A DNA stretch of 64,000 bases from positions 734,131 to 798,130 of the forward strand of contig OY969116.1 in the NCBI GenBank assembly GCA_963698075.1. Direction: 5' to 3'. The position numbers and the translations under genes were made by a program. The notes under the pieces are model-generated. The model saw only the letters and a list, made by a program, of their open reading frames with translations. It was not told the origin of the DNA and searched no databases. How positions within the stretch are numbered: position 1 is the first letter of the stretch; every line of letters starts with the position of its first letter. The DNA comes from an uncultured Candidatus Berkelbacteria bacterium. GTDB taxonomy: Bacteria > Patescibacteriota > UBA1384 > UBA12157 > JAENIV01. This document shows, one piece after another, positions 1 to 62,754 of the stretch.

Positions 1-331
1 GACCCGTTTTGTCACAAGCGGTGGCGACGATAATCCCACATGGCGTGTTCGGATCAGTATTATCCGTGCAGTCCACTCCCCGCTCTACACCCTCGGGCAA
101 ATCCGAGACAGGCGCAGGAGGGAAATGAACGTCGGTGATAACACCATCGAAACGATCGCGCATCCAATATACGTATTGGCTGCCGTCGTACGATTTCGTC
201 TGTATTTTTGGCAAATGTTCCATTGCCTCATACAGATTGGTAGCCTGCAGGACTTCATGCCCTGCTGCTTCCATCACCGAAACCGCTTCGGCCATGTGCT
301 GTGGATCATCCTCGACGATGAGGATACGCAT
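1..331 (-). CDS. response regulator receiver (REC) domain protein, partial (continues past window start)
   Basis: Minus-strand ATG at 329-331 preceded by GAAAGG RBS; translation MRILIVEDDPQHMAEAVSVMEAAGHEV...FDGVITDVHFP is a CheY-like receiver; no stop before position 1; GC ~55%. Confidence 0.55.
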   Translation of the reverse strand, partial: MRILIVEDDPQHMAEAVSVMEAAGHEVLQATNLYEAMEHLPKIQTKSYDGSQYVYWMRDRFDGVITDVHFPPAPVSDLPEGVERGVDCTDNTDPNTPCGIIVATACDKTG

Positions 332-2707: not shown

Positions 2708-3583
2708 ATGAACAAATTAATTCTTTGTATTGATTTGGATGAATGGTATCATGGTCGTTGGGCAACCGGATCAAAAAGGTCACACTGGCAAAACACCGAG
2801 GAGTTGTTTAAGGAATATTATCAATCCGATAGGCCTGCCGGGGAAATTATTAGACCGACCCAAGATATTCTTGAAATCTTGGGTAAAGAAAAAATTAAGG
2901 CCACTTTTTTTATTCTTGGGGAGGTTGCCCAATGGTATCCAAAACTTATCAAAGAAATTGCCAAAGAGGGTCATGAGATTGCCTGCCATGGTTTACATCA
3001 TGAGGATTTATCCTTAAAATCAAAAAGCAAGTTTATCCGGGAGCTCCGAGAAACTCGCCAAATTCTTGAGGATTTGTCAGGTCAAAAAATAATCGGTTTT
3101 AGGGCGCCAAACCTAATCGTCACCGATTGGTTGGCCCCGGTGCTTAAAGCGGAAAAATTTAGCTACGATTCCTCTGTTTGTCCGGCCAGAGCCTTTGGGG
3201 GCAAATATCAAAACCAGGCCAATATTCAACCCAATCCTTATCGGGTTGGTCAAACACTTTTAAAAAAAGGTAATTCTGGGCTTTTCGAAATCCCCATTCC
3301 CACTTTTCCGATCCTCAAACTCCCTGGCGCCGTCTCGATTGCCACGCGCATCTTTGGTTTAACTTGGACGAAAATTACTCTCAATCAAGCTTTAAAAACC
3401 GGTGCTACCTGTTATTATGTCCACCCCTATGAATTCAATCGTCCTCCGAAAGTGCCAATGACTTATCATGAGAAAATCTTTTTCAGACGCTCTGGCCCTT
3501 GGATGAGAAAGGCTTTTAGCAAAATCTTAGCCGACTACCGTTCAAGAATTACCTCGGCCAAGAACTATTTAGAAATATTTTAA
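2708..3583 (+). CDS. polysaccharide deacetylase (CE4/NodB-homology) family protein
   Basis: Motifs LILCIDLDEW (Asp-Asp motif 1) and ACHGLHHEDL (H-x-x-x-H motif 2), GFRAP; alternative TTG start at 2669. Confidence 0.75.
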   Translation: MNKLILCIDLDEWYHGRWATGSKRSHWQNTEELFKEYYQSDRPAGEIIRPTQDILEILGKEKIKATFFILGEVAQWYPKLIKEIAKEGHEIACHGLHHEDLSLKSKSKFIRELRETRQILEDLSGQKIIGFRAPNLIVTDWLAPVLKAEKFSYDSSVCPARAFGGKYQNQANIQPNPYRVGQTLLKKGNSGLFEIPIPTFPILKLPGAVSIATRIFGLTWTKITLNQALKTGATCYYVHPYEFNRPPKVPMTYHEKIFFRRSGPWMRKAFSKILADYRSRITSAKNYLEIF

Positions 3584-22291: not shown

Positions 22292-22317
22292 AACATCGAT
22301 TAAAATTTAAGTTATGT
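22292..22317. repeat. AT-rich palindrome family copy 2 (AACATCGATTAAAATTTAAGTTATGT)
   Basis: read directly, at junction between GT4 operon and high-GC islet. Confidence 0.45.
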
Positions 22318-22440
22318 GTGCTAGAGACTTCTTTATATTTTATAATATTTTTTATTTTTAACCTGAAAAATATACTACTTTTTCTACTCGAGTAATCAAA
22401 GTGATATAGTTTTCCCTGTTAGACTATTAATTTGTAAACA

Positions 22441-22480
22441 AAAAGCCCCGCCGGTTTTCACCTTTGGGGCTTGGTGGTGG
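22441..22480 (-). terminator. rho-independent terminator AGCCCC-N-GGGGCT with T-run on minus strand
   Basis: hairpin AGCCCCGCCGGTTTTCACCTTTGGGGCT followed (minus) by TTTTTGTTT. Confidence 0.5.
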
Positions 22481-22508
22481 TGCCGTTGTGCCTGTTGGGG
22501 CGCGAGGC

Positions 22509-22871
22509 CTAGTAATACATCTTGGCATACTTGATCTCCAGAAGTAGTTCCTCCAGCGCTTTAATTCGCGGCTTGTCATCGGGGTAGTAGCGTTTCTCTG
22601 CTGCCAAAAGGGCTTCGACGGGAGCGGGAGCTTCGAGAATTTGGCAGTTAATGCGGATTTTCTCCTTATCTGTTTTGTCCTTTGATTCCTTGGCGCTGGA
22701 AATTCTGGCCTCATCGAACGCCCGATAACATTTGGCGTACTCCTCGGGCGTATCTTCCCCGATTCCGACGTAGGCGTATGCCGCCATTGCCCGAAAGACA
22801 GCTCCTGTGAGCTTGAGTCCGGTCTGCCAATCGGGGGACAGCACTCTAAACACGTCTTCCCATCCAGGCAT
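22509..22871 (-). CDS. hypothetical protein (high-GC islet cassette gene)
   Basis: 120-aa ORF, RBS AAAGGAG, GC ~52%. Confidence 0.5.
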   Translation of the reverse strand: MPGWEDVFRVLSPDWQTGLKLTGAVFRAMAAYAYVGIGEDTPEEYAKCYRAFDEARISSAKESKDKTDKEKIRINCQILEAPAPVEALLAAEKRYYPDDKPRIKALEELLLEIKYAKMYY

Positions 22872-22873
22872 CT

Positions 22874-22989
22874 GTTTTCTCCTTTCTCAACGCTCCAATC
22901 CCGTTAGATAACGATGTATCCAATGGGACTCGAGGTTGACCATGTTAAATCTGAAAACTATTTAACAGGGTTGAGCCCCGCCCTCACGG
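22874..22989 (-). repeat. cassette-boundary element copy B (GGAGCGTTGAGAAAG ... CTCGAGGTTGACC ... hairpin AGCCCCGCCCTCACGGACGGGGCT)
   Basis: read directly; shares arms with copies A, C, E. Confidence 0.45.
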
Positions 22990-23250
22990 ACGGGGCTGGT
23001 TGAAATTGCGGCGGATAAGCCGCAGTGCTTTGCCCTCTAACTGCTTGGTTTGCCTCCGTGTTTTGCCGAGCAGCCGACCCGCTTCCTCGAGAGTCATGAG
23101 GTGGGCGGAGAGGCCGAAGCGATAGCTCAGAACCATCCGTTCAGACACATCAAGGGCGGCGTAGGCTTGGCGGACTCGTTCTTGGTCTTCGGCGGTCACA
23201 TCCTTCAGCTCTTTGCCTGTTAGGGCTCGCGCCAAATGCCTGAAATCCAT
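22984..23250 (-). CDS. sigma-70 region 4-like HTH small protein (88 aa)
   Basis: LDVSERMVLSYRFGLSAHLMTLEEAGRLLGKTRRQTKQLEGKALRLIRR matches sigma70 region 4 (LSERER.VL.LRFGL...TLEEIG..LGVTRERIRQIE.KALRKLR); RBS CTAGGAGG. Confidence 0.55.
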   Translation of the reverse strand: MDFRHLARALTGKELKDVTAEDQERVRQAYAALDVSERMVLSYRFGLSAHLMTLEEAGRLLGKTRRQTKQLEGKALRLIRRNFNQPRP

Positions 23251-23269
23251 GAGTTCCTCCTAGGAGATA

Positions 23270-23341
23270 GATTCAACTCTTGAACTCCCATATCTCTATA
23301 GAAGCTCGAGGTTGAGCCGGAAAGTCACCCAACCCTCCGGC
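23270..23341 (-). repeat. cassette-boundary element copy C (GATTCAACTCTTGAACTC ... GCTCGAGGTTGAGCC + hairpin GCCGGA-N-TCCGGC)
   Basis: read directly. Confidence 0.45.
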
Positions 23342-23462
23342 TATTTTGATCTTACCCATGGCTGTTTGAACGGGTTTGATCGGTTGTCGTGTGGTTGCCT
23401 TCTGGTTCTTGCCCAGGCGCCCCACACAGGCTGAGCCGTTCTCGGCTAGCGAACCGCTAGAG

Positions 23463-23759
23463 CTACTCCTTCACCAGGAATGCTACGGCTTGGATGATAA
23501 ATCCTGATGGTTGGAGCCAGTCTAGAGTGAAGTAGCCGCGATTTGGTTCGGGATACTCCCTAACCTTGACGTCCTTCATCTTGGTGGGTTTATCCTGGCC
23601 AGGAAAAGTAATCTCCTTGGCCTCCAAATCGGCGACGTACTCCTTTCCCGCAGGGAGGGTATGTTCGAGAACGTAGAGGGTATCTGGCGTTCTCGCATAC
23701 TGGCCACTGCGGGCGGTAGTGGTAAGGCGGATCGGTATGGTCTCACCTCCTTTCAGCAC
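23463..23759 (-). CDS. hypothetical protein (cassette gene)
   Basis: 98-aa ORF in same orientation as neighbours, GC-rich. Confidence 0.45.
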   Translation of the reverse strand: MLKGGETIPIRLTTTARSGQYARTPDTLYVLEHTLPAGKEYVADLEAKEITFPGQDKPTKMKDVKVREYPEPNRGYFTLDWLQPSGFIIQAVAFLVKE

Positions 23760-23915
23760 AGGTTGTCAAAAACAGGTTAACAGGTATAACTTATCTTCAG
23801 AACGTAATATTATAGCACATTCCGACTGATTTGTCAAGACTTTTTACATATATATTGACAAAATAAAAGATTTGATATATAATATAATTAATAAATGTAA
23901 AAAAAATTTACAACA

Positions 23916-24662
23916 ATGAATCTAGAGAAACTTTTAGAAGAATTTGGGTTAAATGAGAAAGAGGCAAAAACTTACCTTGCCTGTTTGGAATTGGGGCCAT
24001 CGAAAATTCATGACATTGCTGACTTATCGGGCGTTGGTCGAGTGAATACCTACTATATTATTGAGAAATTAATCCAGCATGGTTTGGTCAGCCGCACTTT
24101 CAAAAAAGAGAAAATGCTTTTTGTGGCGGAAGAGCCGGAAGTTTTAGCGGAAATTGCCCAACGCCGGGCCAAGCGTTTTAAAAATTTATTACCCAATCTT
24201 AAAGCCCTCTCAAAAGGAGAGAACAAACCCTCGGTCAGGTATTACGAAGGCGAAGAAGGAATCAAAGCGTTATATGAAGATTCTTTAACCAGTAAAGAAA
24301 AAATATATGCTTGGAATAGCGCCGAAAATCTTGAAGCAGTCATGCCGGAATATTTTCACGATTATTACAAGCGCCGGGCAGCCAAAAATATCTTTATTAC
24401 AGGTATTTTGAATGATTCTCCTGAAGCGCGGGCATACCAAAAGCAGGATAAAGAGTTAAAACGCGAAATTCGACTGGTGCCCGAGAATCGAATGAATATT
24501 AAGCCTGAGTGCTATATTTATGAAAATAAGGTCTCTTTTATGTCTTTACGGGAGAAAATTGGGGTGATGATTGAGTCTAAAGATATCGCCGATGCGATGA
24601 AACGGCTATATGAACTTGCTTGGGAAAGAGCTGGGGAATATCAAAAAAAGGTCTCGAAGTAA
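23916..24662 (+). CDS. TrmB-family transcriptional regulator, paralog 2
   Basis: LEEFGLNEKEAKTYLACLELGPSKIHDIADLSGVGRVNTYYIIEKLIQHGLV; promoter TTGACA-16-TATAAT with TTGTCAA/TTGACAA inverted repeat at 23831-23862. Confidence 0.8.
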   Translation: MNLEKLLEEFGLNEKEAKTYLACLELGPSKIHDIADLSGVGRVNTYYIIEKLIQHGLVSRTFKKEKMLFVAEEPEVLAEIAQRRAKRFKNLLPNLKALSKGENKPSVRYYEGEEGIKALYEDSLTSKEKIYAWNSAENLEAVMPEYFHDYYKRRAAKNIFITGILNDSPEARAYQKQDKELKREIRLVPENRMNIKPECYIYENKVSFMSLREKIGVMIESKDIADAMKRLYELAWERAGEYQKKVSK

Positions 24663-24669
24663 AACAAAA

Positions 24670-24732
24670 CCCCGTTAGATAACTCTGTATCTAACGGGGC
24701 AGGAGCCCCGCAGCCGATATGGCTTTGGGGCT
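24670..24732. terminator. tandem hairpins CCCCGTTAGATA-actctg-TATCTAACGGGG and AGCCCCG-N-GGGGCT between convergent genes
   Basis: perfect 12-bp palindrome arms read directly. Confidence 0.5.
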
Positions 24733-24741
24733 TGGGGCGAT

Positions 24742-25098
24742 CTAATCGACATTAGGCGTCTGGATTACAGCAACAATAACTGCTGCTGGAATCCACATCG
24801 GTACAGGTTCATCTTCCCAGTCGTATCCCGGATGATAGGGGAACCAAGCGTCTCTCAGAAAAGCTCCTTTTTCATTCAAGCTTGCAAGGTTTCCTCTAAC
24901 CACCAGGTGTTCCTCCAGATCATCTTCCGGCTGTTTTTTCTGGTTCCGATAAGTACCGCGTGGTAACTTGATGTTGGTGATGATATGGAACGTTGGTCCC
25001 TCTGGGGAGTTCTTGAAAGGGCCAACATGGCCAAGTAGCCAGTACCAATTCTTGATGTCATCCCAGATTTTCTTAATCTTTCTCCCTAGCTTCTTCAT
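24742..25098 (-). CDS. hypothetical protein (cassette gene)
   Basis: start MKKLGRKIKK with RBS AAGGGG; longer ORF to 25176 unlikely. Confidence 0.45.
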   Translation of the reverse strand: MKKLGRKIKKIWDDIKNWYWLLGHVGPFKNSPEGPTFHIITNIKLPRGTYRNQKKQPEDDLEEHLVVRGNLASLNEKGAFLRDAWFPYHPGYDWEDEPVPMWIPAAVIVAVIQTPNVD

Positions 25099-25131
25099 TG
25101 TTCCCCTTGCGTTTAAGGGCCGCCGCCCGTA

Positions 25132-25205
25132 GATTGTCAACTCTCGAGCCATCCAAGTCAAACCTGAATGGCTCAAGGTTGACCCCGCCCCTGATTGGGG
25201 CGGGG
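25132..25205 (-). repeat. cassette-boundary element copy E (GATTGTCAACTCTCGAGCC ... GGCTCAAGGTTGACC + hairpin CCCCGCCCC-tgatt-GGGGCGGGG)
   Basis: read directly; arms pair as ~15-bp imperfect stem with 20-nt loop. Confidence 0.5.
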
Positions 25206-25211
25206 TGAGTG

Positions 25212-25577
25212 TTACTTTTTCCTCCAGTGCTCAATGTCAAGCTGGCGAATGTAGACTGTACACTGACCCCTGCCAGCCGGCTGTTCGATGATGACGACGA
25301 TGTCATCCCCATCCACAGCCCCTCGGTAGACCAGGAAGTCATACTCGAAGACTTCATCTCCTCGTTTAGTGAAAACCCAGAAACACACAACAGGAGGTTT
25401 GAAATGGACCAGGAGATGTGAGCCACTCCAGTCCCTACTAGAGCGGCTCTCCTCAGGGATCAATTCCCAGGTTGCCTGGGAAAGATCCGCCAAGAATTGG
25501 GACCTCTGACAGATCAACTCTGCCCACTCCTCGGCAGTCTCTGGCCTCGGATAGCCGATTTTGCGAACTTCCATTTT
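25212..25577 (-). CDS. hypothetical protein (cassette gene)
   Basis: start MEVRKIG with RBS AAGGAGAGG; tool ORF extends to 25670. Confidence 0.45.
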   Translation of the reverse strand, partial: KMEVRKIGYPRPETAEEWAELICQRSQFLADLSQATWELIPEESRSSRDWSGSHLLVHFKPPVVCFWVFTKRGDEVFEYDFLVYRGAVDGDDIVVIIEQPAGRGQCTVYIRQLDIEHWRKK

Positions 25578-25750
25578 CCTCTCCTTGAGTTTTAAGCTTC
25601 GTTCCAATGGGCGATACCTGTTATCAGGTATGCTTCCCATCGTGAACGTCCTATTATAGCATATATGCAAGCAAATGTCAAGTCTGTATAGACATATATT
25701 ATGGACTATTGACCAAATATAATAAATAGTGTATAATAGAATTAAACAAT

Positions 25751-26509
25751 ATGAATAATGAAGAGTTAGTAAAATTGTTGGCAGAATTAGGAATTACCGG
25801 CAATGAGGCGAAGGTTTATCTCGCCTGCTTGGAGCTGGGGCCGACAACAATTACTAAAATCGCCCGTAAAGCGGAGGTTGAGCGGGCAACGGTTTATGCG
25901 ATTTTGGATCGTTTGAAAGAAAAAGGATTAGTAGGCATCGAAGTCAAAGATTATGACCGGCATGTTCAAGTTGAGACACCCGATAAATTATTGGTTCTTG
26001 CGCGGCACAAAAAGAGGGCCATCGAAGAAAAAGAACATCAATTTAAAGAAATTTTGCCAGATTTGTTGGCTACGGTTAACCAGCGCGGCAAACAGCCAAA
26101 AGTGCGGTTTTATGAGGGGAAAGAGCAATTTATGGCTGTTTTTGATCAAGCATTAGATGAAACCAAAGAAAAAATGTATTTTTTTGGCGCGGCTTCGCTT
26201 TTTGTTGACCTTATTTCTTATCAGTTTGAAAAAGAATGGATTAAAAGAAGGGTACGTAAGAAAATCCATATTGATATTTTGGTCCACAAAACCCCATTAA
26301 CCGAGAGATTTAAAATTGACGACGAGAAAGAAATGCGAACCACTCGATTTTTGCCATCGAATATGAAATTCGAGGCCTCATATCTTTTATGGGGTAATAA
26401 AATTGCCCTCTGGAACCCCGTCGTTCCTTTGGCAATAGTTATCGAGGACGAAATTATCGTCAAAATGTTTAAGGAGATGTTTTTCGGGTTGTGGGCAAAG
26501 GCAAAATAA
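25751..26509 (+). CDS. TrmB-family transcriptional regulator, paralog 3
   Basis: LAELGITGNEAKVYLACLELGPTTITKIARKAEVERATVYAILDRLKEKGLV; promoter TTGACC-18-TATAAT. Confidence 0.75.
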   Translation: MNNEELVKLLAELGITGNEAKVYLACLELGPTTITKIARKAEVERATVYAILDRLKEKGLVGIEVKDYDRHVQVETPDKLLVLARHKKRAIEEKEHQFKEILPDLLATVNQRGKQPKVRFYEGKEQFMAVFDQALDETKEKMYFFGAASLFVDLISYQFEKEWIKRRVRKKIHIDILVHKTPLTERFKIDDEKEMRTTRFLPSNMKFEASYLLWGNKIALWNPVVPLAIVIEDEIIVKMFKEMFFGLWAKAK

Positions 26510-28457: not shown

Positions 28458-29192
28458 TTATTTCCGGGCACAGACAACGTCATAGTTCGGCTCGTGGGCC
28501 AATTTAGGTTGCCAGATTCCGGTCGGCTGAAGACTTCGCAAGATCTCTACGAGCTCGTCTGCCGTCAGTAGGTAACAGATGGAATCACCGCAGAATTCCT
28601 GACCGTGGACCATCCCGGAACCTGAAATATAGCGCGCCCTTTTTTGCCAGTCGTGCTCGATGCGGCCGACAAGTTCAATGTCGGGCAAGCTTATTGTGAC
28701 CGCTCGGCTACCCAGAGCAATTTCTCCCTGAGAGACCGTGTCGAGATAAAGTATTCCGCCTGGCTTGAGCTGGCGATACATTATTCTGATGCTTTTTTCG
28801 ATCAGGATACTTATGGTGTCAGAGTCAAAATCGTGCTTTTCTTTGTCCCAACTATTCACGTAGGTGAGACTATTACCTCGGCAGATGACGGCATCAAAGG
28901 TCTCGCCCAGTCGGCCCAAATTCAGCCAGTTCATCAGAATGTAGGTTAGGTTAGTATGGGCATGTTCTTGTTCAGCCATTGCGATCATCTCTGGCTCGGC
29001 ATCGATTCCAATGCCACAAAACCCCCGTCTGGCTAAGCCTTCCAGAAAGTAGCCATTGCCGCAGCCGCACTCGAGAATCCTCTGCGCCCCATTCTGGCGG
29101 AGAAAAGCAGCTAATTCAGCGATGAAATCCTCGCCGTACATTGCCTCCGAAAGCGCTGACCACTCCTGGGAAAGGGTCATTGATGGTCTCAT
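28458..29192 (-). CDS. class I SAM-dependent methyltransferase
   Basis: RILECGCGNGYFLEGLARRGF SAM-binding motif; GC ~52%. Confidence 0.75.
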   Translation of the reverse strand: MRPSMTLSQEWSALSEAMYGEDFIAELAAFLRQNGAQRILECGCGNGYFLEGLARRGFCGIGIDAEPEMIAMAEQEHAHTNLTYILMNWLNLGRLGETFDAVICRGNSLTYVNSWDKEKHDFDSDTISILIEKSIRIMYRQLKPGGILYLDTVSQGEIALGSRAVTISLPDIELVGRIEHDWQKRARYISGSGMVHGQEFCGDSICYLLTADELVEILRSLQPTGIWQPKLAHEPNYDVVCARK

Positions 29193-29193
29193 C

Positions 29194-29844
29194 TTATATC
29201 TCCTTATATCCGATTATTCTTATGCCGCCAGCCGGCTTGTCCTCTGGCAAGAAGCCGGGGATGATCCAGAGGAATTTTCCGCCACCGGCTACCCGGATGT
29301 AAAAAGCCAAGGTTGGATCAGTCAACAGTATTTCATCCGTCGGGAATGGGCCACCGGCCAAATAACTGTCAAGCGCGGCTTTCAGTTCCGGATTTTGTCT
29401 GATCTGTTCTTCTTTCGCCACGCTGCCATTGTAGGAGGATGGTCGGCCGTCAACGACAACGTAAGTGCAGCCGTCCTTCTTTGCTCTTTCAAACATCGCT
29501 CTAATCAGCAAAGAAGCGGCTTTGCCTCCCCGGTAGTTGGGGATGACATCAAGGTTATAGACAAAAACAGTGTTATATCTTTCTGGCCGAGGCTGATGAG
29601 AGAATTCTTGGAAAGTTTTGGGAAAGCCTTCGAAATCATTGGGGGAGAAGTTGGCATAGGAAAAGCAAATCTTCCCGATCAGTTTTCCGGCCATTTCAGC
29701 CCCAAGCATGATATGCCCCAGATGCAACCTTAGCCGGACGGACTCCTCACTAGCCTGGATAGCGGGGATAAAGGACAGTCTCTCGGTATGCATGATTCTT
29801 TCGATGTCCTTAAGACCGAGGGTGACGATTGTAAAGGTGTTCAC
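29194..29844 (-). CDS. GNAT-family acetyltransferase-like protein
   Basis: VIPNYRGGKAASLLIRAMFERAKKDGCTYV resembles GNAT motif A; start/stop overlap with downstream methyltransferase. Confidence 0.5.
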   Translation of the reverse strand: MNTFTIVTLGLKDIERIMHTERLSFIPAIQASEESVRLRLHLGHIMLGAEMAGKLIGKICFSYANFSPNDFEGFPKTFQEFSHQPRPERYNTVFVYNLDVIPNYRGGKAASLLIRAMFERAKKDGCTYVVVDGRPSSYNGSVAKEEQIRQNPELKAALDSYLAGGPFPTDEILLTDPTLAFYIRVAGGGKFLWIIPGFLPEDKPAGGIRIIGYKEI

Positions 29845-29991: not shown

Positions 29992-30756
29992 ATGAATCTT
30001 GAAGAAGTTTTAGAAGAATATGGGCTTACCGAAAGACAAGCCAAGGTCTACTTGGCTGCTTTGGAATTGGGCGAATCCGACGTTTCGGATCTTGCCCAGA
30101 AAGCCCAAATCAGAAGAGCAGGCGCTTATTATTTAAGCGAATCATTGGTTAAAGACGGTTTGTTTTATAAAACTAAAAAAGCCAATAAACTCTATTATTC
30201 CGCCGTTGAACCAAAAAATCTATTAGAGCAAGCCAAACGCAAAAAACAAATTATTGAAGAAAATTTCTCAGAACTTCAAGCTTTAGCAAGGTTGTCAATC
30301 AAAAAACCCAACATCCATATTTATGAAGGAATTGAGGGCATAAAAACTGCCTATAAAAGAACTTTAACTAAGAAAAATGCCAAAATGTATGCCTTTTCGC
30401 CTTATGCGACCGCCCAAAAAACCGCCCAATTTCACGGTCGGGAATATCTCAAATGGGGTTTAGAATATATTAAACAAAGAGCCAAAAAAAACATTTTTGT
30501 TTATGACATTGCCGAAGACTCCTCAGAGGCGCGGGAAAGAAAAAAACGTGATCAAGAAGAGTTGCGAGAAACCCGTTTAGTGCCTAAGGAAAAGTTTCCT
30601 TTTACGAACGAAATTGATATTTTCCAAAATTTGGTCATTATAATCTCGTATAAAGAGTTATTGGCAATAATAATCGAATCTCAAGATATCGCTTTTACTT
30701 TAAAGACCATTTTCAACCTCGCCTGGGAGGCGGCAGCTAATTATAGTAAAAAGTAA
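29992..30756 (+). CDS. TrmB-family transcriptional regulator, paralog 4
   Basis: LEEYGLTERQAKVYLAALELGESDVSDLAQKAQIRRAGAYYLSESLVKDGL; C-terminus near-identical in pattern to paralog 1. Confidence 0.8.
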   Translation: MNLEEVLEEYGLTERQAKVYLAALELGESDVSDLAQKAQIRRAGAYYLSESLVKDGLFYKTKKANKLYYSAVEPKNLLEQAKRKKQIIEENFSELQALARLSIKKPNIHIYEGIEGIKTAYKRTLTKKNAKMYAFSPYATAQKTAQFHGREYLKWGLEYIKQRAKKNIFVYDIAEDSSEARERKKRDQEELRETRLVPKEKFPFTNEIDIFQNLVIIISYKELLAIIIESQDIAFTLKTIFNLAWEAAANYSKK

Positions 30757-30817: not shown

Positions 30818-31840
30818 ATGGGTGAATTTAGGCCTTATCCGGTGCCGGAATATACTCATGAGCAAGTTTTTGGCCCAGAAAGAATGACTGATGGCGAAAG
30901 CATCAGCCAAGAGAGAGTCGAGGAATTAGCTTCTTTAATTGAATCAGACGCTCAAAATTTTCAAAGATTCCAAATAAGTGAGGCCCAACGTGGGCTAAAA
31001 ACCTGGGATGAAGTTTTTAGCCAAATGGGGGAGATCCACAAAGCCGAGGCCGAAGATTTTGCCGAAAGCCCTTTGGAAGGGAAAATGATGTCGGTTTATT
31101 GGGGAATGGGCGAGATTTTAAGCCAAACCAGAGAAAGAAATAGTTTGTCGCGGGCGCTTGAGGCGATTGAAGCCCGCCCTAATCCTGATAAACGACATCG
31201 CGCCGAAATAAAAAAACGATTTGACGAACTTAATATCCCCTTAGCCGATTGGCAAAATGACATCGCTCGAGTCACTTTGGCCTTGGCGAAGATGGAGGCC
31301 GGCCGTAAATTTTTAAAGTTTTTTTGGGACTCATTCCATAAACTTTCTCGCCTCACTTTTGAGGAGAGCGAAGACCAGTCGGGAAGCATCAGAAGTGGCG
31401 TCTTAGGAGTTATAACGACGATCAAAATTATGAACGCTTTGAGTTTTGAAACTGCCCTGCCTTATCCAGAGCAAGATGCCATTCATAAGATTGATCTTTT
31501 TGCTCGGCGCGGTGAACAAACCCTGGCGATTCAAGTTAAATCCCATAACGCCCCGGTTTTAAGAGTTCGTTGTTTTCCTTTGAGAAGTCTAGAAAGAACA
31601 GATGGTTTGGAGGGTCGCGAAAAGAAAGAAGCGGAAAATCGCAATCAACTCTTGACAAATAGCCGAAAATATGCAGATAATTGGGGAAAGCCGGTGGTGC
31701 CGCTCTGGGTTGATCTAGACCGCTACGGCGGTCTGAACCTTTACCAAGACGAGTTGACTGGTGAGCCCGCCCGCGACTTTACGCTGGGGAAACTTGCCCA
31801 AGAGGTGGAGGCCAGTCTCAAAGGAGGCACCGATGTCTGA
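30818..31840 (+). CDS. hypothetical protein (340 aa, high GC)
   Basis: long ORF with coding-like composition, no recognisable motif. Confidence 0.5.
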   Translation: MGEFRPYPVPEYTHEQVFGPERMTDGESISQERVEELASLIESDAQNFQRFQISEAQRGLKTWDEVFSQMGEIHKAEAEDFAESPLEGKMMSVYWGMGEILSQTRERNSLSRALEAIEARPNPDKRHRAEIKKRFDELNIPLADWQNDIARVTLALAKMEAGRKFLKFFWDSFHKLSRLTFEESEDQSGSIRSGVLGVITTIKIMNALSFETALPYPEQDAIHKIDLFARRGEQTLAIQVKSHNAPVLRVRCFPLRSLERTDGLEGREKKEAENRNQLLTNSRKYADNWGKPVVPLWVDLDRYGGLNLYQDELTGEPARDFTLGKLAQEVEASLKGGTDV

Positions 31841-38473: not shown

Positions 38474-38974
38474 ATGAGCAATTCGACTGCAGCACCCGAA
38501 GTGACGCAGGAGGCGGCCGGCCATTTCGGCATCGGAACGAAACATCCTGGTGGCGACATGACGCTCTTGATGATACCAGCCGTCCCGGAGCAGTTCGATC
38601 TGGATTCTCTGAACGCACGGATCGACCCCAATGGTTATCTTGTCATCGACGCCGAGCGAGGTGAGTCGAAACTTCACTTGGTTCTACCGGCTGATGAGAC
38701 GAAGATGACGGAAGTGACAATGTTCACACCGCAGCCCGAGACCGAGTTACAGTGGGTTCTCCACGCGAGGTGGAGCGGTGAACATTTCACCTTCGTGCTC
38801 AACCCAAACTTCATGAAGCTGTGCCAGCCTGGCTTGGCGCTCTACGTGCTCACCGAGCATTTGGCCAAGTGCTTGACCAAAGCCATGATCGACGACATCG
38901 CCAGATTCTGTACCAGCAGGTCTGGCTACTACGCAGACTTCGGTCGGCTTATTTCAGAGCTGTCGGCGCGGTGA
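38474..38974 (+). CDS. hypothetical protein, orphan high-GC (~58%) gene with own promoter and terminator
   Basis: promoter-like TTGACC/TATAGT and RBS AAAGGAAG upstream; perfect terminator downstream. Confidence 0.5.
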   Translation: MSNSTAAPEVTQEAAGHFGIGTKHPGGDMTLLMIPAVPEQFDLDSLNARIDPNGYLVIDAERGESKLHLVLPADETKMTEVTMFTPQPETELQWVLHARWSGEHFTFVLNPNFMKLCQPGLALYVLTEHLAKCLTKAMIDDIARFCTSRSGYYADFGRLISELSAR

Positions 38975-46838: not shown

Positions 46839-47246
46839 TCATCGTCTTTTACCTCCTTTAACAAGCTGCAGATTGCGTAGTCCGGCTTGGGGGACGAATT
46901 GACCACCGACTCGAGAGCCAAAAAGATAGCGAGGATGTGAAGAACATCTAAGAACCACTCCTTCAGTATCTGCCGGCTCAAGAATGTATCTTTCGTTAGC
47001 TGGTTTTGGTGGATTGTTGTGAAGGATAACCTTGCCAGCAAAAGGCAACCGTGACTCTTCGGTGGCTTCAAGATCCAGACTAACACATCGATGTTTGCCA
47101 CCTGCCTTTGCTTCACAGATGACGTATGACCCGAAGGGATGATTATTGCGCAAGATGGTGACAGGAAACAAAAAAGGGATTTCGAAGTTTCGCCAGCAAT
47201 CAGAATCTCGAAATTGGCCTGTCAGGGTGAATGGGCTTCTTACCAT
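46839..47246 (-). CDS. hypothetical protein (high GC)
   Basis: strong RBS GAGGAGGTGAG before ATG 47246. Confidence 0.5.
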   Translation of the reverse strand: MVRSPFTLTGQFRDSDCWRNFEIPFLFPVTILRNNHPFGSYVICEAKAGGKHRCVSLDLEATEESRLPFAGKVILHNNPPKPANERYILEPADTEGVVLRCSSHPRYLFGSRVGGQFVPQAGLRNLQLVKGGKRR

Positions 47247-57629: not shown

Positions 57630-58037
57630 CTAGCTCAGGATGTGTGCTCGCAGATCTTCTGCGCGGGTAGTCCAACCCTTCCCGATCCAGATGACCTTCC
57701 CATCCGGAATGAAACCTGTCCAGACGGCGACTCGCATCCTCGGGTAGCGAGCCGCCATCTCCTCGGCTGTCCGTTCCATATCGCGGCTGACGAAGACTAT
57801 CGCGCTCACTCCCGTGCCTGTCTGGATGCGGTGCTCCGCCTCCTTGGCGGTGGCGAAAATCTCCACATCTGCCGCTTTCTGCGTACCGCCATGTAGGGCA
57901 GGCACTTCTGCCTCGAGCGTTTCCTGGAGATACTTGACCTGCAGTTCGTAGTCTTCGGGCGTTGCTTGCCCCCACTGTCCTTCCTTTACGATCAGAACGG
58001 TCGGTATCATGCCGTCCTCCTTTCCGTGGTGATACAA
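57630..58037 (-). CDS. hypothetical protein (high GC ~58%)
   Basis: 135-aa ORF; flavodoxin/CheY-like alternation of hydrophobic strands; no motif recognised. Confidence 0.45.
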   Translation of the reverse strand: MYHHGKEDGMIPTVLIVKEGQWGQATPEDYELQVKYLQETLEAEVPALHGGTQKAADVEIFATAKEAEHRIQTGTGVSAIVFVSRDMERTAEEMAARYPRMRVAVWTGFIPDGKVIWIGKGWTTRAEDLRAHILS

Positions 58038-61803: not shown

Positions 61804-62754
61804 TCACGCGGGAGGCGTTTCTTGATGTCTTCTTCTCCCATGAAACGCCTGGTGGACTTCGGCGAGATGCTGGTCAGTGACGTGAGTATAGATTTGGGTT
61901 GTCGTCACCGAAGCGTGGCCTAAAAGTTCCTGAACCGAGCGCAAGTCCGCTCCGGACATTAAAAGATCAGTGGCAAACGAATGACGCATGGTGTGGGGGC
62001 TAACATGTTTGGTAATTCCCGCCATTCGGGCATATTTATGAATCATCCGCTGAACCGACCGGGGAGTCATAGGGGAAGGTTTTAGGTTTAAGGGGTTAGG
62101 TTTTAAAGAGTGTCCGTAAGATATAAATAAATACGGGTTTTTATCATTCCTAATATTTAAATAATTTTTTATCGATTCTCGTGCTTCTTGATCCAAAAAG
62201 ACAACTCTGACTTTACCACCCTTACCGACCACCGAAAATTCGCTCTTTTCCAAATTAATATCATCCTTTTTAAGATTACAAAGCTCAGAAACCCGAAGTC
62301 CAGTTGAAAAAAATAGATCCAAAATTGCCTTATCGCGCCGACCCTGGATGGTTCTTAAATCTGGTTGTTTGAGGATGGCGTCAAGTTCTTCATCATCCAA
62401 AAAACTTATTTGACGTTCGCCAGTTTTGGCCAGTTCGATGCCTTCGGCAGACAGTGTTTGAATCCCGCGAGTGCCCAAATATTTCAAAAAAGCCCTCAAG
62501 GCAATCAAATGATAATTGGCGGTTGATTTGGCAATAATATCTTTTTTGGTTGAATCAGGCAATCTATGCAAAAACAGCCGATATTTATGAATTAGATCCT
62601 GATCAATTTTTTGAGGGGTTTCCACTCCCGAATCTTTAGCAAAACCGGCAAAACGCCTTAGATAATGATCATAATTTCTGACCGTCAGAACCGAGTGGCC
62701 TTTGTCCACCTCCAGATACTCCAAGAAATCAGTGATGAGACTATTAATAGTCAT
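61804..62754 (-). CDS. XerC/XerD-family tyrosine site-specific recombinase
   Basis: C-terminal RHSFATDLLMSGADLRSVQELLGHASVTTTQIYTHV (R..H..R...Y catalytic residues). Confidence 0.88.
   Translation of the reverse strand: MTINSLITDFLEYLEVDKGHSVLTVRNYDHYLRRFAGFAKDSGVETPQKIDQDLIHKYRLFLHRLPDSTKKDIIAKSTANYHLIALRAFLKYLGTRGIQTLSAEGIELAKTGERQISFLDDEELDAILKQPDLRTIQGRRDKAILDLFFSTGLRVSELCNLKKDDINLEKSEFSVVGKGGKVRVVFLDQEARESIKNYLNIRNDKNPYLFISYGHSLKPNPLNLKPSPMTPRSVQRMIHKYARMAGITKHVSPHTMRHSFATDLLMSGADLRSVQELLGHASVTTTQIYTHVTDQHLAEVHQAFHGRRRHQETPPA

Follow-up and report, generated by a model that had tools for sequence, protein, structure and literature searches.

A structured intergenic module in TrmB-linked operons with variable cargo genes in Patescibacteria

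We have identified a recurrent structured module in a 64-kb stretch of an uncultured Candidatus Berkelbacteria genome (contig OY969116.1, positions 734,131 to 798,130; hereafter the window), where it follows small genes in operons that are each divergent from a gene for a TrmB-family regulator. The module joins a variable GC-rich hairpin (hp1) to a longer hairpin with a conserved base and a covarying top (hp2), and the pair constitutes a structured RNA motif with good support and no counterpart in Rfam. We conclude that hp1-hp2 probably acts in cis as a structured RNA, and on balance we favour its interpretation as an intercistronic RNA "punctuation" module in TrmB-linked operons whose cargo genes vary. 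The window was compared with loci from Patescibacteria metagenome-assembled genomes (MAGs) and metagenome contigs, numbered here with the prefix L. Its closest public relative is a Patescibacteria MAG; an independent assembly, L001, is 100% identical to the window and is therefore uninformative on variation.

Architecture of the module

The module has a fixed order: a stop codon, 0-11 nt, hp1, hp2, an adaptor hairpin (hp3), an exposed Shine-Dalgarno (SD) sequence and the start codon of the following ORF. The GC hairpin hp1 is variable and has 7-11 bp. hp2 has the base 5'-UCAAC-CUYGAG...YUCRAG-A-GUUGA-3' with a bulged A, and a variable, covarying top in which a GNRA loop is frequent; UCAAC-CU and AG-A-GUUGA are its sole invariant parts. 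The initial annotation of this region had recognized both arms, GGTCAACCTYGAGC and TCRAGAGTTGA, which are indeed present and pair with a one-base bulge. It had described a stem of ~15 bp around a variable centre, but the centre is self-complementary and the stem extends to 19-22 bp.

A covariance model detects four copies in the window, all on the minus strand (574-623, 22882-22941, 23268-23317 and 25132-25184; E 1.5e-14 to 4.6e-08), and not the six first proposed; the copy near the window start, earlier placed at 574-651, is among the four. The next-best score in the window, with model R1, is 11.8 bits. The exact string TCAACCTYGAG occurs four times, always on the minus strand and at module positions, and allowing one mismatch gives 10 matches against 1.7 expected. 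All four copies lie within TrmB-linked operons, and folding z-scores of the intergenic regions in the window range from -3.1 to -9.0. Each of five small open reading frames (ORFs) had been thought to be followed by a module; this holds for A1, B1 and B2 (described below), whereas intrinsic terminators with T runs come after A2 and B3.

The copy after ORF A1 (M1) displays all parts of the module. Its hp1 (25183-25205, minus strand, as are all module parts given here) folds as a 9-bp GC hairpin that lies 6 nt past the A1 stop codon and abuts hp2, and a nearly identical hp1 follows an unrelated ORF in L025. The M1 hp2 (25137-25182) has 21 bp, the base UCAACCU.../...AGAGUUGA and the bulged A (56.8 bits, E 9e-12), and folds at -29.7 kcal/mol on the sense strand vs -17.9 kcal/mol on the antisense strand. 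The adjoining hp3 and SD (25099-25128), read from the sequence, comprise GGGC-GGCG-GCCC and the SD region UUAAACGCAAGGGG before the A2 start; the same hp3/SD adaptor also stands before unrelated ORFs in L029, L032, L043 and L028 and at 1241-1266 in the window.

The remaining copies vary mainly in the upper part of hp2. M2 comprises hp1 at 23316-23341, identified by folding, and hp2 at 23273-23315, which has a GAGA loop (63.7 bits, E 1.7e-13). The hp2 of M3 (22887-22939) has a longer top and a bulged C, not A (41.8 bits, E 4.6e-8), and weaker hairpins lie upstream of it at 22943-22982. M4 pairs an hp1 at 622-652, again identified by folding, with an hp2 at 579-621 that has a GCAA loop (67.9 bits, E 1.5e-14). 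Additionally, a leader hairpin (M5, 1277-1326; GGUUCAAC...UAUUGAACC; fold z -4.9) is a degenerate relative of hp2 and is followed by an hp3 at 1255-1266 and an SD; it is conserved in L043 and undetected by model R1.

A pattern scan for the module in one genome per species returned one true relative, in the Patescibacteria MAG H43-bin058_1 (L025), and one possible match in a Bacteroidales contig (L027, 31.6 bits), and a scan of JGI metagenomes gave ~18 further loci on contigs of ~40% GC. Same-strand arrays of 2-3 copies, 116-740 nt apart, occur in L028, L031, L033, L052 and L054; hp2 copies are also found in 5' leaders, and multiple sequence subfamilies of hp1 and hp2 recur across genomes. A loose module pattern gave 19 single matches in viral contigs, which had no hairpin support and were judged to be chance. 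Searched with Rfam 15, the window yields only three tRNAs at the gathering score and nothing relevant at E<=10 across 22300-25800, and seven module-bearing loci gave no match.

Covariation and strand polarity

The repeats are a genuine hairpin family with a conserved base and a variable, covarying top. Among 18 distinct hp2 copies from the window and Patescibacteria metagenome contigs, 93% of cells are paired vs 76% in shuffles, and compensatory changes occur at 10 of the 19 pairs. The covariation score is 0.47 vs 0.157, a value that none of 500 shuffles reached, and sliding the 3' partner as a control lowers pairing to 23-44%. The CUCGAG/CUCGAG arm itself covaries, to CUGGAA/UUCCAG or CUUAUG/CAGAAG, and orthologous hp2 copies in the window and L043 differ by a double change from C-G to U-A.

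Several features distinguish the strand that is sense to the ORFs. Mean folding energy of hp2 is -20.9 kcal/mol in sense vs -15.3 kcal/mol in antisense, with sense the better in 18 of 24 copies (p=2e-4), and across 24 copies the sense strand has 55 G.U pairs vs 18 in antisense. GNRA terminal loops close 9 of 25 hp2 copies, whereas ~1 in 32 random four-base loops would be of this kind, and the hp1 loop is GNRA or UNCG in 8 copies. The earlier description of a GC hairpin abutting the conserved arm is accurate: hp1 adjoins hp2 with a gap of 0-1 nt in 21 of 25 copies, which suits coaxial stacking. All copies are co-oriented with the flanking ORFs, lying either past a stop codon and ahead of an SD and ATG, or in leaders. 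Each is followed by one of two types of adaptor hairpin, and in both types the SD lies just outside hp3, exposed right before the next ATG. Folding energy, G.U pairs, loops, abutment and co-orientation all favour the strand that is sense to the ORFs, and by extension the transcript. A pairing of the hp2 5' arm with the SD (CCUUGAG/CUCAAGG, in L025 and type II adaptors) was considered and set aside as inconsistent across copies.

TrmB-linked operons and their cargo

The five minus-strand ORFs of the initial annotation are all present in the ORF list at the positions first given, and their high GC content is real: GC at third codon positions (GC3) is 0.50-0.65 vs 0.35-0.47 in neighbouring host genes. 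GC at second positions is the lowest of the three, as in coding sequence, and the composition looks foreign to the host, whose sequence has ~40% GC and carries genes including those for a glycosyltransferase, GroEL and TrpRS. The ORFs had been taken for a promoterless single array with a TrmB gene embedded in it. Instead, they form two operons, each with a sigma-70 promoter matching the consensus at 12 of 12 positions and a terminator with a T run, and each divergent from its own TrmB-family gene.

Operon A (minus strand) starts from a promoter at 25653-25681 (TTGACA-17-TATAAT with TG before the -10, 12/12 consensus) that is conserved at the orthologous loci L025, L064, L060 and L065. It encodes A1 (25212-25577; 121 aa, GC3 0.61) and A2 (24742-25098; 118 aa), both orphans: A1 found only itself among 5.8e9 proteins, and A2, searched against 1.8e9 representatives, found itself and, weakly, repeats within giant proteins. 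The operon ends at 24669-24730 with a GCCCCAAAG...GCGGGGC hairpin followed by a 13-bp hairpin and T run, which also serves the convergent gene for TrmB2; the same sequence ends the orthologous operon in L064.

Operon B (minus strand) has its 12/12 promoter, again with TG, at 23809-23837 and encodes three ORFs. B1 (23463-23759) has 98 aa if read from a GTG, and GC of 0.59/0.40/0.62 at the three codon positions; its start is doubtful, as the GTG lacks an SD and the gene is not called in L001. B2 (22984-23250; 88 aa) resembles the helix-turn-helix of sigma-70 region 4 (PF04545, E 1.9e-8). B3 (22509-22871; 120 aa) is an orphan that gave only a self-hit in libraries of 5.8e9 and 1.8e9 proteins, and neither A1 nor P0122 (the protein that B3 found as itself) had a match when looked up as an exact protein. 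The terminator (22436-22470; GCCCCAAAGG...CGGGGCUUUUUGUUU, read from the sequence) belongs to a family that recurs after the operon at 28458 and in L025, L060 and L066.

At the start of the window, a third such unit consists of a TrmB gene, a promoter, a structured leader and ORF C1 (operon C, minus strand). Its promoter (1406-1434; TTGACA-17-TATACT, read from the sequence) is conserved in L043, and C1 (660-1235) is a 191-aa protein with a signal peptide and an orthologue in L043 that is 86% identical.

The three regulator genes lie on the plus strand: TrmB1 (1540-2307; NCBIfam TrmB matches; 82% identical to the L043 protein and 71% to that of L028) is divergent from operon C, TrmB2 (23916-24662; PF01978, E 5.7e-13; own 12/12 promoter at 23855-23883) from operon B, and TrmB3 (25751-26509; PF01978, E 8.5e-16) from operon A. 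A fourth TrmB-family gene (29992-30756, plus strand) heads, in divergent orientation, an operon of a GNAT-like ORF (29194-29844) and a class I methyltransferase gene (28458-29192), which has no hp2 modules and ends in a terminator of the same conserved family. Here three TrmB units stand in tandem, vs one in the syntenic locus L025.

The predicted structure of TrmB3 (pLDDT 90.4) is most similar in Foldseek to TrmBL2 (5bpd, E 1.3e-14) and then to TrmB (3qph, E 1.2e-9), and a sequence search of the PDB gave no match. TrmBL2 is an archaeal chromatin protein and repressor. Like it, the proteins described here have ~250 aa and join an N-terminal winged helix (PF01978) to a long coiled-coil helix and a C-terminal domain that is PLD-like; unlike it, they are bacterial, share only ~21% identity with it, and form a set of several paralogues (28-41% identical) in which every member has a divergent cargo operon of its own. 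A role as a nuclease or recombinase was considered and rejected, as inspection by eye showed no HKD motif in the PLD-like domain of the paralogues. As the best fold matches are TrmBL2 and TrmB and a conserved HKD motif is lacking, TrmB3 is most likely a DNA-binding repressor, to judge from the model. Our literature search found nothing on TrmB in Patescibacteria or the candidate phyla radiation.

A TrmB-family gene is present in every module-bearing locus with enough flanking sequence, usually divergent from the module operon, and apart from the orthologous C1 no cargo ORF is common to the loci. TrmB3 orthologues that are 57-91% identical head operons with unrelated cargo: ORFs of 147 and 55 aa in L058, 75 and 86 aa plus a Bro-N protein in L060, 380 aa in L062, 52 and 118 aa in L064, 128 aa plus a radical SAM protein in L065, a radical SAM protein plus an ORF of ~180 aa in L066, a decarboxylase in L067, 84 aa in L025, and A1 and A2 in the window. 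The promoter, the start of the leader and the conserved terminator (GCCCCAAAG...GCGGGGCUUUUU) are kept throughout. In this respect, the genes between the repeats behave like exchangeable cargo.

Two comparisons show where homology breaks off. The window and L025 are homologous in the TrmB gene, in the promoter and over the initial 18 nt of the leader; homology is lost over the ORF (an 84-aa zinc ribbon vs A1), and returns 5 nt before hp1 to run through hp2, hp3 and the SD. Between operon C and L043, identity is ~85-90% from the promoter through C1, hp1 and hp2, and divergence is complete right after GTTGA.

The units themselves occur in two contexts, between dciA and recF-dnaN-dnaA or within a glycosyltransferase cluster (L058-L061, L065 and L066 compared with the window, L025 and L062), and the whole unit therefore relocates between related genomes. 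A radical SAM gene is cargo in three of these TrmB3 units.

Proposed function and alternatives

We propose that the module is transcribed within polycistronic mRNAs, between cistrons and sometimes in the 5' leader, of operons that the TrmB-like protein would repress. RNase III, or else an RNA-binding protein or nuclease dedicated to the module, would recognize the hp2 stem as double-stranded RNA, and cleavage or binding there would separate the cistrons. hp1 would then shield the 3' end of the upstream message, and hp3 with its open SD would provide a standard translation start for the downstream ORF, independent of the variable cargo sequence. The length of hp2 (19-22 bp), between a promoter and a terminator on the same strand, fits that of an RNase III site (~20 bp or more). 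This specific scheme of processing, stability and insulation is tentative, and we rate it a little short of evenly probable.

A known parallel is provided by the RNase III sites of T7 early mRNA, where the cut gives the upstream message a stable hairpin at its 3' end and places a defined 5' end ahead of the following ribosome-binding site. Those sites, too, lie between the cistrons of a polycistronic mRNA and are hairpins about two helical turns in length. The module differs in having a strictly conserved base and bulged A, in including a separate, abutting hp1, in being chromosomal and TrmB-linked, and in that its cleavage is predicted.

Several observations weigh against the punctuation interpretation. 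Only one of seven loci fetched through TrmB3 orthologues has hp2 (L066), and model R1 finds none in L058-L065 and L067 despite their orthologous TrmB units; the module is therefore frequent in, but not obligatory to, these units. Alignment columns 10-73 hold C.A in 6 of 18 copies, which would be G.U on the antisense strand. DNA folding parameters also favour the sense strand (-8.6 vs -7.5, p=0.009; GC skew +0.10), a result with which a single-stranded DNA structure of the top strand is also compatible. The homology breakpoints at module edges in L025 and L043 hint at a DNA-level role as well. The strictly invariant base of 7+8 nt exceeds what RNase III normally needs, and together with the bulge it suggests a sequence-specific partner. 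Finally, cleavage, binding and even co-transcription are features that we infer, as are the nature of the partner, repression by the TrmB-like protein and the route of cargo exchange.

Such a partner could make hp2 an operator hairpin for a regulatory RNA-binding protein, perhaps the TrmB-like protein itself, acting in translational repression, attenuation or antitermination. We consider this unlikely, although it overlaps the punctuation interpretation and does not oppose it. An invariant sequence with a bulged A at the stem base is typical of protein-recognized hairpins, hp2 copies occur in 5' leaders, and the TrmB-family gene is the only conserved protein partner. However, the TrmB3 model matches the DNA-binding folds of TrmBL2 and TrmB with no RNA-binding domain detected, most copies lie past stop codons and not over the SD, and no alternative terminator/antiterminator pairing was found.

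It is improbable that the module is a selfish palindrome that is merely co-transcribed, of the type of repetitive extragenic palindromes and bacterial interspersed mosaic elements (REP/BIME), Correia elements or miniature inverted-repeat transposable elements. In enterobacteria REP/BIME, and in Neisseria the Correia elements, are scattered over the whole genome in either orientation and have associated RAYT or other transposases. The module resembles them as a short co-transcribed palindromic repeat in the intergenic regions of operons, with multiple subfamilies in different genomes, and such elements may stabilize upstream mRNA or be cut by RNase III. In contrast to them, it is confined to one operon type and one orientation, with four copies in 64 kb and none outside TrmB-linked operons. 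It keeps a precise register with stop codon, SD and ATG, no target-site duplications were seen, and the window has no ORF for RAYT or another transposase. Additionally, compensatory evolution maintains the hp2 stem, which is therefore not in neutral decay and shows clear structural selection.

The initial annotation had compared the region with integron-type gene cassettes. Under this reading, to which we give a slightly lower probability still, hp2 would be a single-stranded DNA recombination site that a tyrosine recombinase (IntI, absent here, or the Xer of the host) cleaves near GTTGA, ORFs with their modules would move as cassettes, and the array would be a cluster of attC sites lacking an integrase (CALIN). 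The resemblance is considerable. Imperfect inverted repeats lie between small, same-strand, compositionally foreign orphan ORFs, and gene content varies among related genomes. An ...AAC / GTT... base is present in nearly all copies, and a conserved base under a variable top is attC-like. Similar hp1/hp2 types stand beside unrelated ORFs in different genomes, as do V. cholerae repeats in chromosomal integrons, and the end of homology with L043 exactly at the 3' end of hp2 is compatible with an ORF and its site moving together.

Against this, no IntI is encoded in the 64 kb, as had been noted for the vicinity, and none is called in the loci with gene tables (L001, L058-L067). The sole tyrosine recombinase (61804-62754, minus strand) lies 36 kb away and reaches 146 bits against a cut-off of 265 on the integron-integrase model TIGR02249. 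It is best classed as XerC/XerD (248 and 244 bits). It also scores 236 bits on the archaeal XerA model, above the cut-off of 220, and fits a single-recombinase Xer system.

The sites match the full attC core poorly, with RYYYAAC (R'') in 3 and GTTRRRY (R') in 10 of 24 copies, although nearly all copies have the AAC and GTT triplets. In attC, two or three bases near L'' are extrahelical and an unpaired spacer in the centre separates the R from the L boxes (PMC5027507), whereas hp2 has a single bulge on the 3' arm in an otherwise continuous lower stem, with seven invariant pairs and no unpaired spacer. The bottom strand of attC, antisense to the ORFs, folds better and has more G:T pairs and purines (PMC5027507), and the polarity of hp2 is the reverse, with G.T pairs, stability and G skew all favouring the ORF-sense strand.

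The arrangement also departs from that of promoterless cassettes that share a common promoter. Two 12/12 promoters and two terminators lie within 3.3 kb, the array is split by a divergent regulator gene, and copies occur in 5' leaders and, in L031, in tandem with no intervening ORF. In L025 the ORF is swapped while hp1-hp2 stay, so that the module outlasts the change of ORF, which is not what an attC-type cassette predicts. No cargo ORF was seen in two different contexts among the compared loci.

That the modules are ordinary intrinsic terminators and promoters, alike by chance, is scarcely credible: hp1 is a strong GC hairpin right past the stop codon and one weak terminator-like call overlaps the M3 hp1 region, but there is no U tract (hp1 runs into UCAACCU, and hp2 into A-rich or mixed sequence), no promoter-like site of at least 10/12 lies between a module and the next ORF, the sequence is conserved on many metagenome contigs with E down to 1e-14, and genuine terminators of a different conserved type close each operon.

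Implications

Most Patescibacteria, whose genomes are tiny, are known only through metagenomics, and their means of controlling expression and of gaining genes are very poorly understood. The arrangement that recurs here combines a TrmBL2-like regulator, a consensus promoter, orphan cargo that differs completely between close relatives and a conserved terminator, and the literature that we searched contains no description of such TrmB-linked modules and variable cargo. The module suits operons in which foreign cargo is constantly replaced. Were it a processing and insulation element, it would have its natural counterpart in the RNA insulators that are built into synthetic operons. Should its edges double as exchange points, they would mark a new path by which gene cassettes turn over in a lineage of ultra-small symbionts.

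A more speculative possibility, which we regard as doubtful, is that the units are an integrase-independent platform for gene capture and expression, with a TrmBL2-like repressor at a consensus promoter, and with foreign or newly arisen ORFs slotted between standardized RNA modules. These would process and insulate each cistron in RNA and, through their invariant sequences, provide junctions or homology anchors in DNA for the exchange of cargo between genomes. Such a platform would be a functional analogue of integrons built from different parts.

Leaders, micro-ORFs and neighbouring genes

The leaders of these operons are long (~50-350 nt, the longest in metagenome loci) and structured, at 1340-1440, 23760-23808 and 25578-25652 (minus strand) in the window and in L028, L031, L033 and L054. 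They have in common a transcript start (A/G)YGTTCACRATGRGA, ACCUG...CAGGU hairpins and UUAACAAUUUAAUUUCUCCCCUG, and may contain RNA elements additional to hp1-hp3.

Operons of the TrmB3 type end in a conserved micro-ORF with its own SD that runs into the terminator or hp1. Its peptides are MVPRGPPSPKAISAAGLLPR in L064 (~20-82, minus strand), MAPRGPPQAPRE.. in L058, MVSRGPPTPTP.. in L065 and MVSRGPPTSPAG.. in L066 (1880-1922, minus strand). In the window, the micro-ORF frame at 24690-24741 (minus strand) goes on past the A2 stop codon (IAPSPKAISAAGLLPR), and a 33-aa ORF at 22427-22528 (minus strand; MPRCITRPRAPTGTTAPPPSPKGENRRGFLFTN) overlaps B3 at its end and extends through the terminator. 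Runs of proline (RGPP/PPP) in the micro-ORFs suggest ribosome stalling coupled to termination.

Directly after the last module and next to recF, three loci share a highly conserved element of ~80 nt (AAUGUGCAGGUCUAAGUCCC...GGACACGUGUUAAAUCUACACAUUAUACAC...ACUAAAA; L031 ~3430-3512, L046 ~900-979, L054 ~2380-2475 on the minus strand). Its fold is a long hairpin; Rfam has no match for it, and the window no copy.

Adjoining the TrmB units of the window is a gene for a 340-aa protein (30818-31840, plus strand) that belongs to no Pfam or NCBIfam family and has a counterpart of 23% identity in L025 (302-1318, minus strand), likewise beside the TrmB unit. On inspection by eye, a D...(E/Q)xK pattern in its C-terminal part may resemble that of PD-(D/E)xK nucleases.

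Elsewhere in the window, the orphan ORFs at 38474-38974 (plus strand), 57630-58037 and 46839-47246 (both minus strand) stand isolated, each with its own promoter-like sequence and terminator hairpin and with no TrmB gene or module. The first two have GC3 of 0.69-0.70, far above the host, and the genome seems to be dotted with small compositionally foreign insertions.

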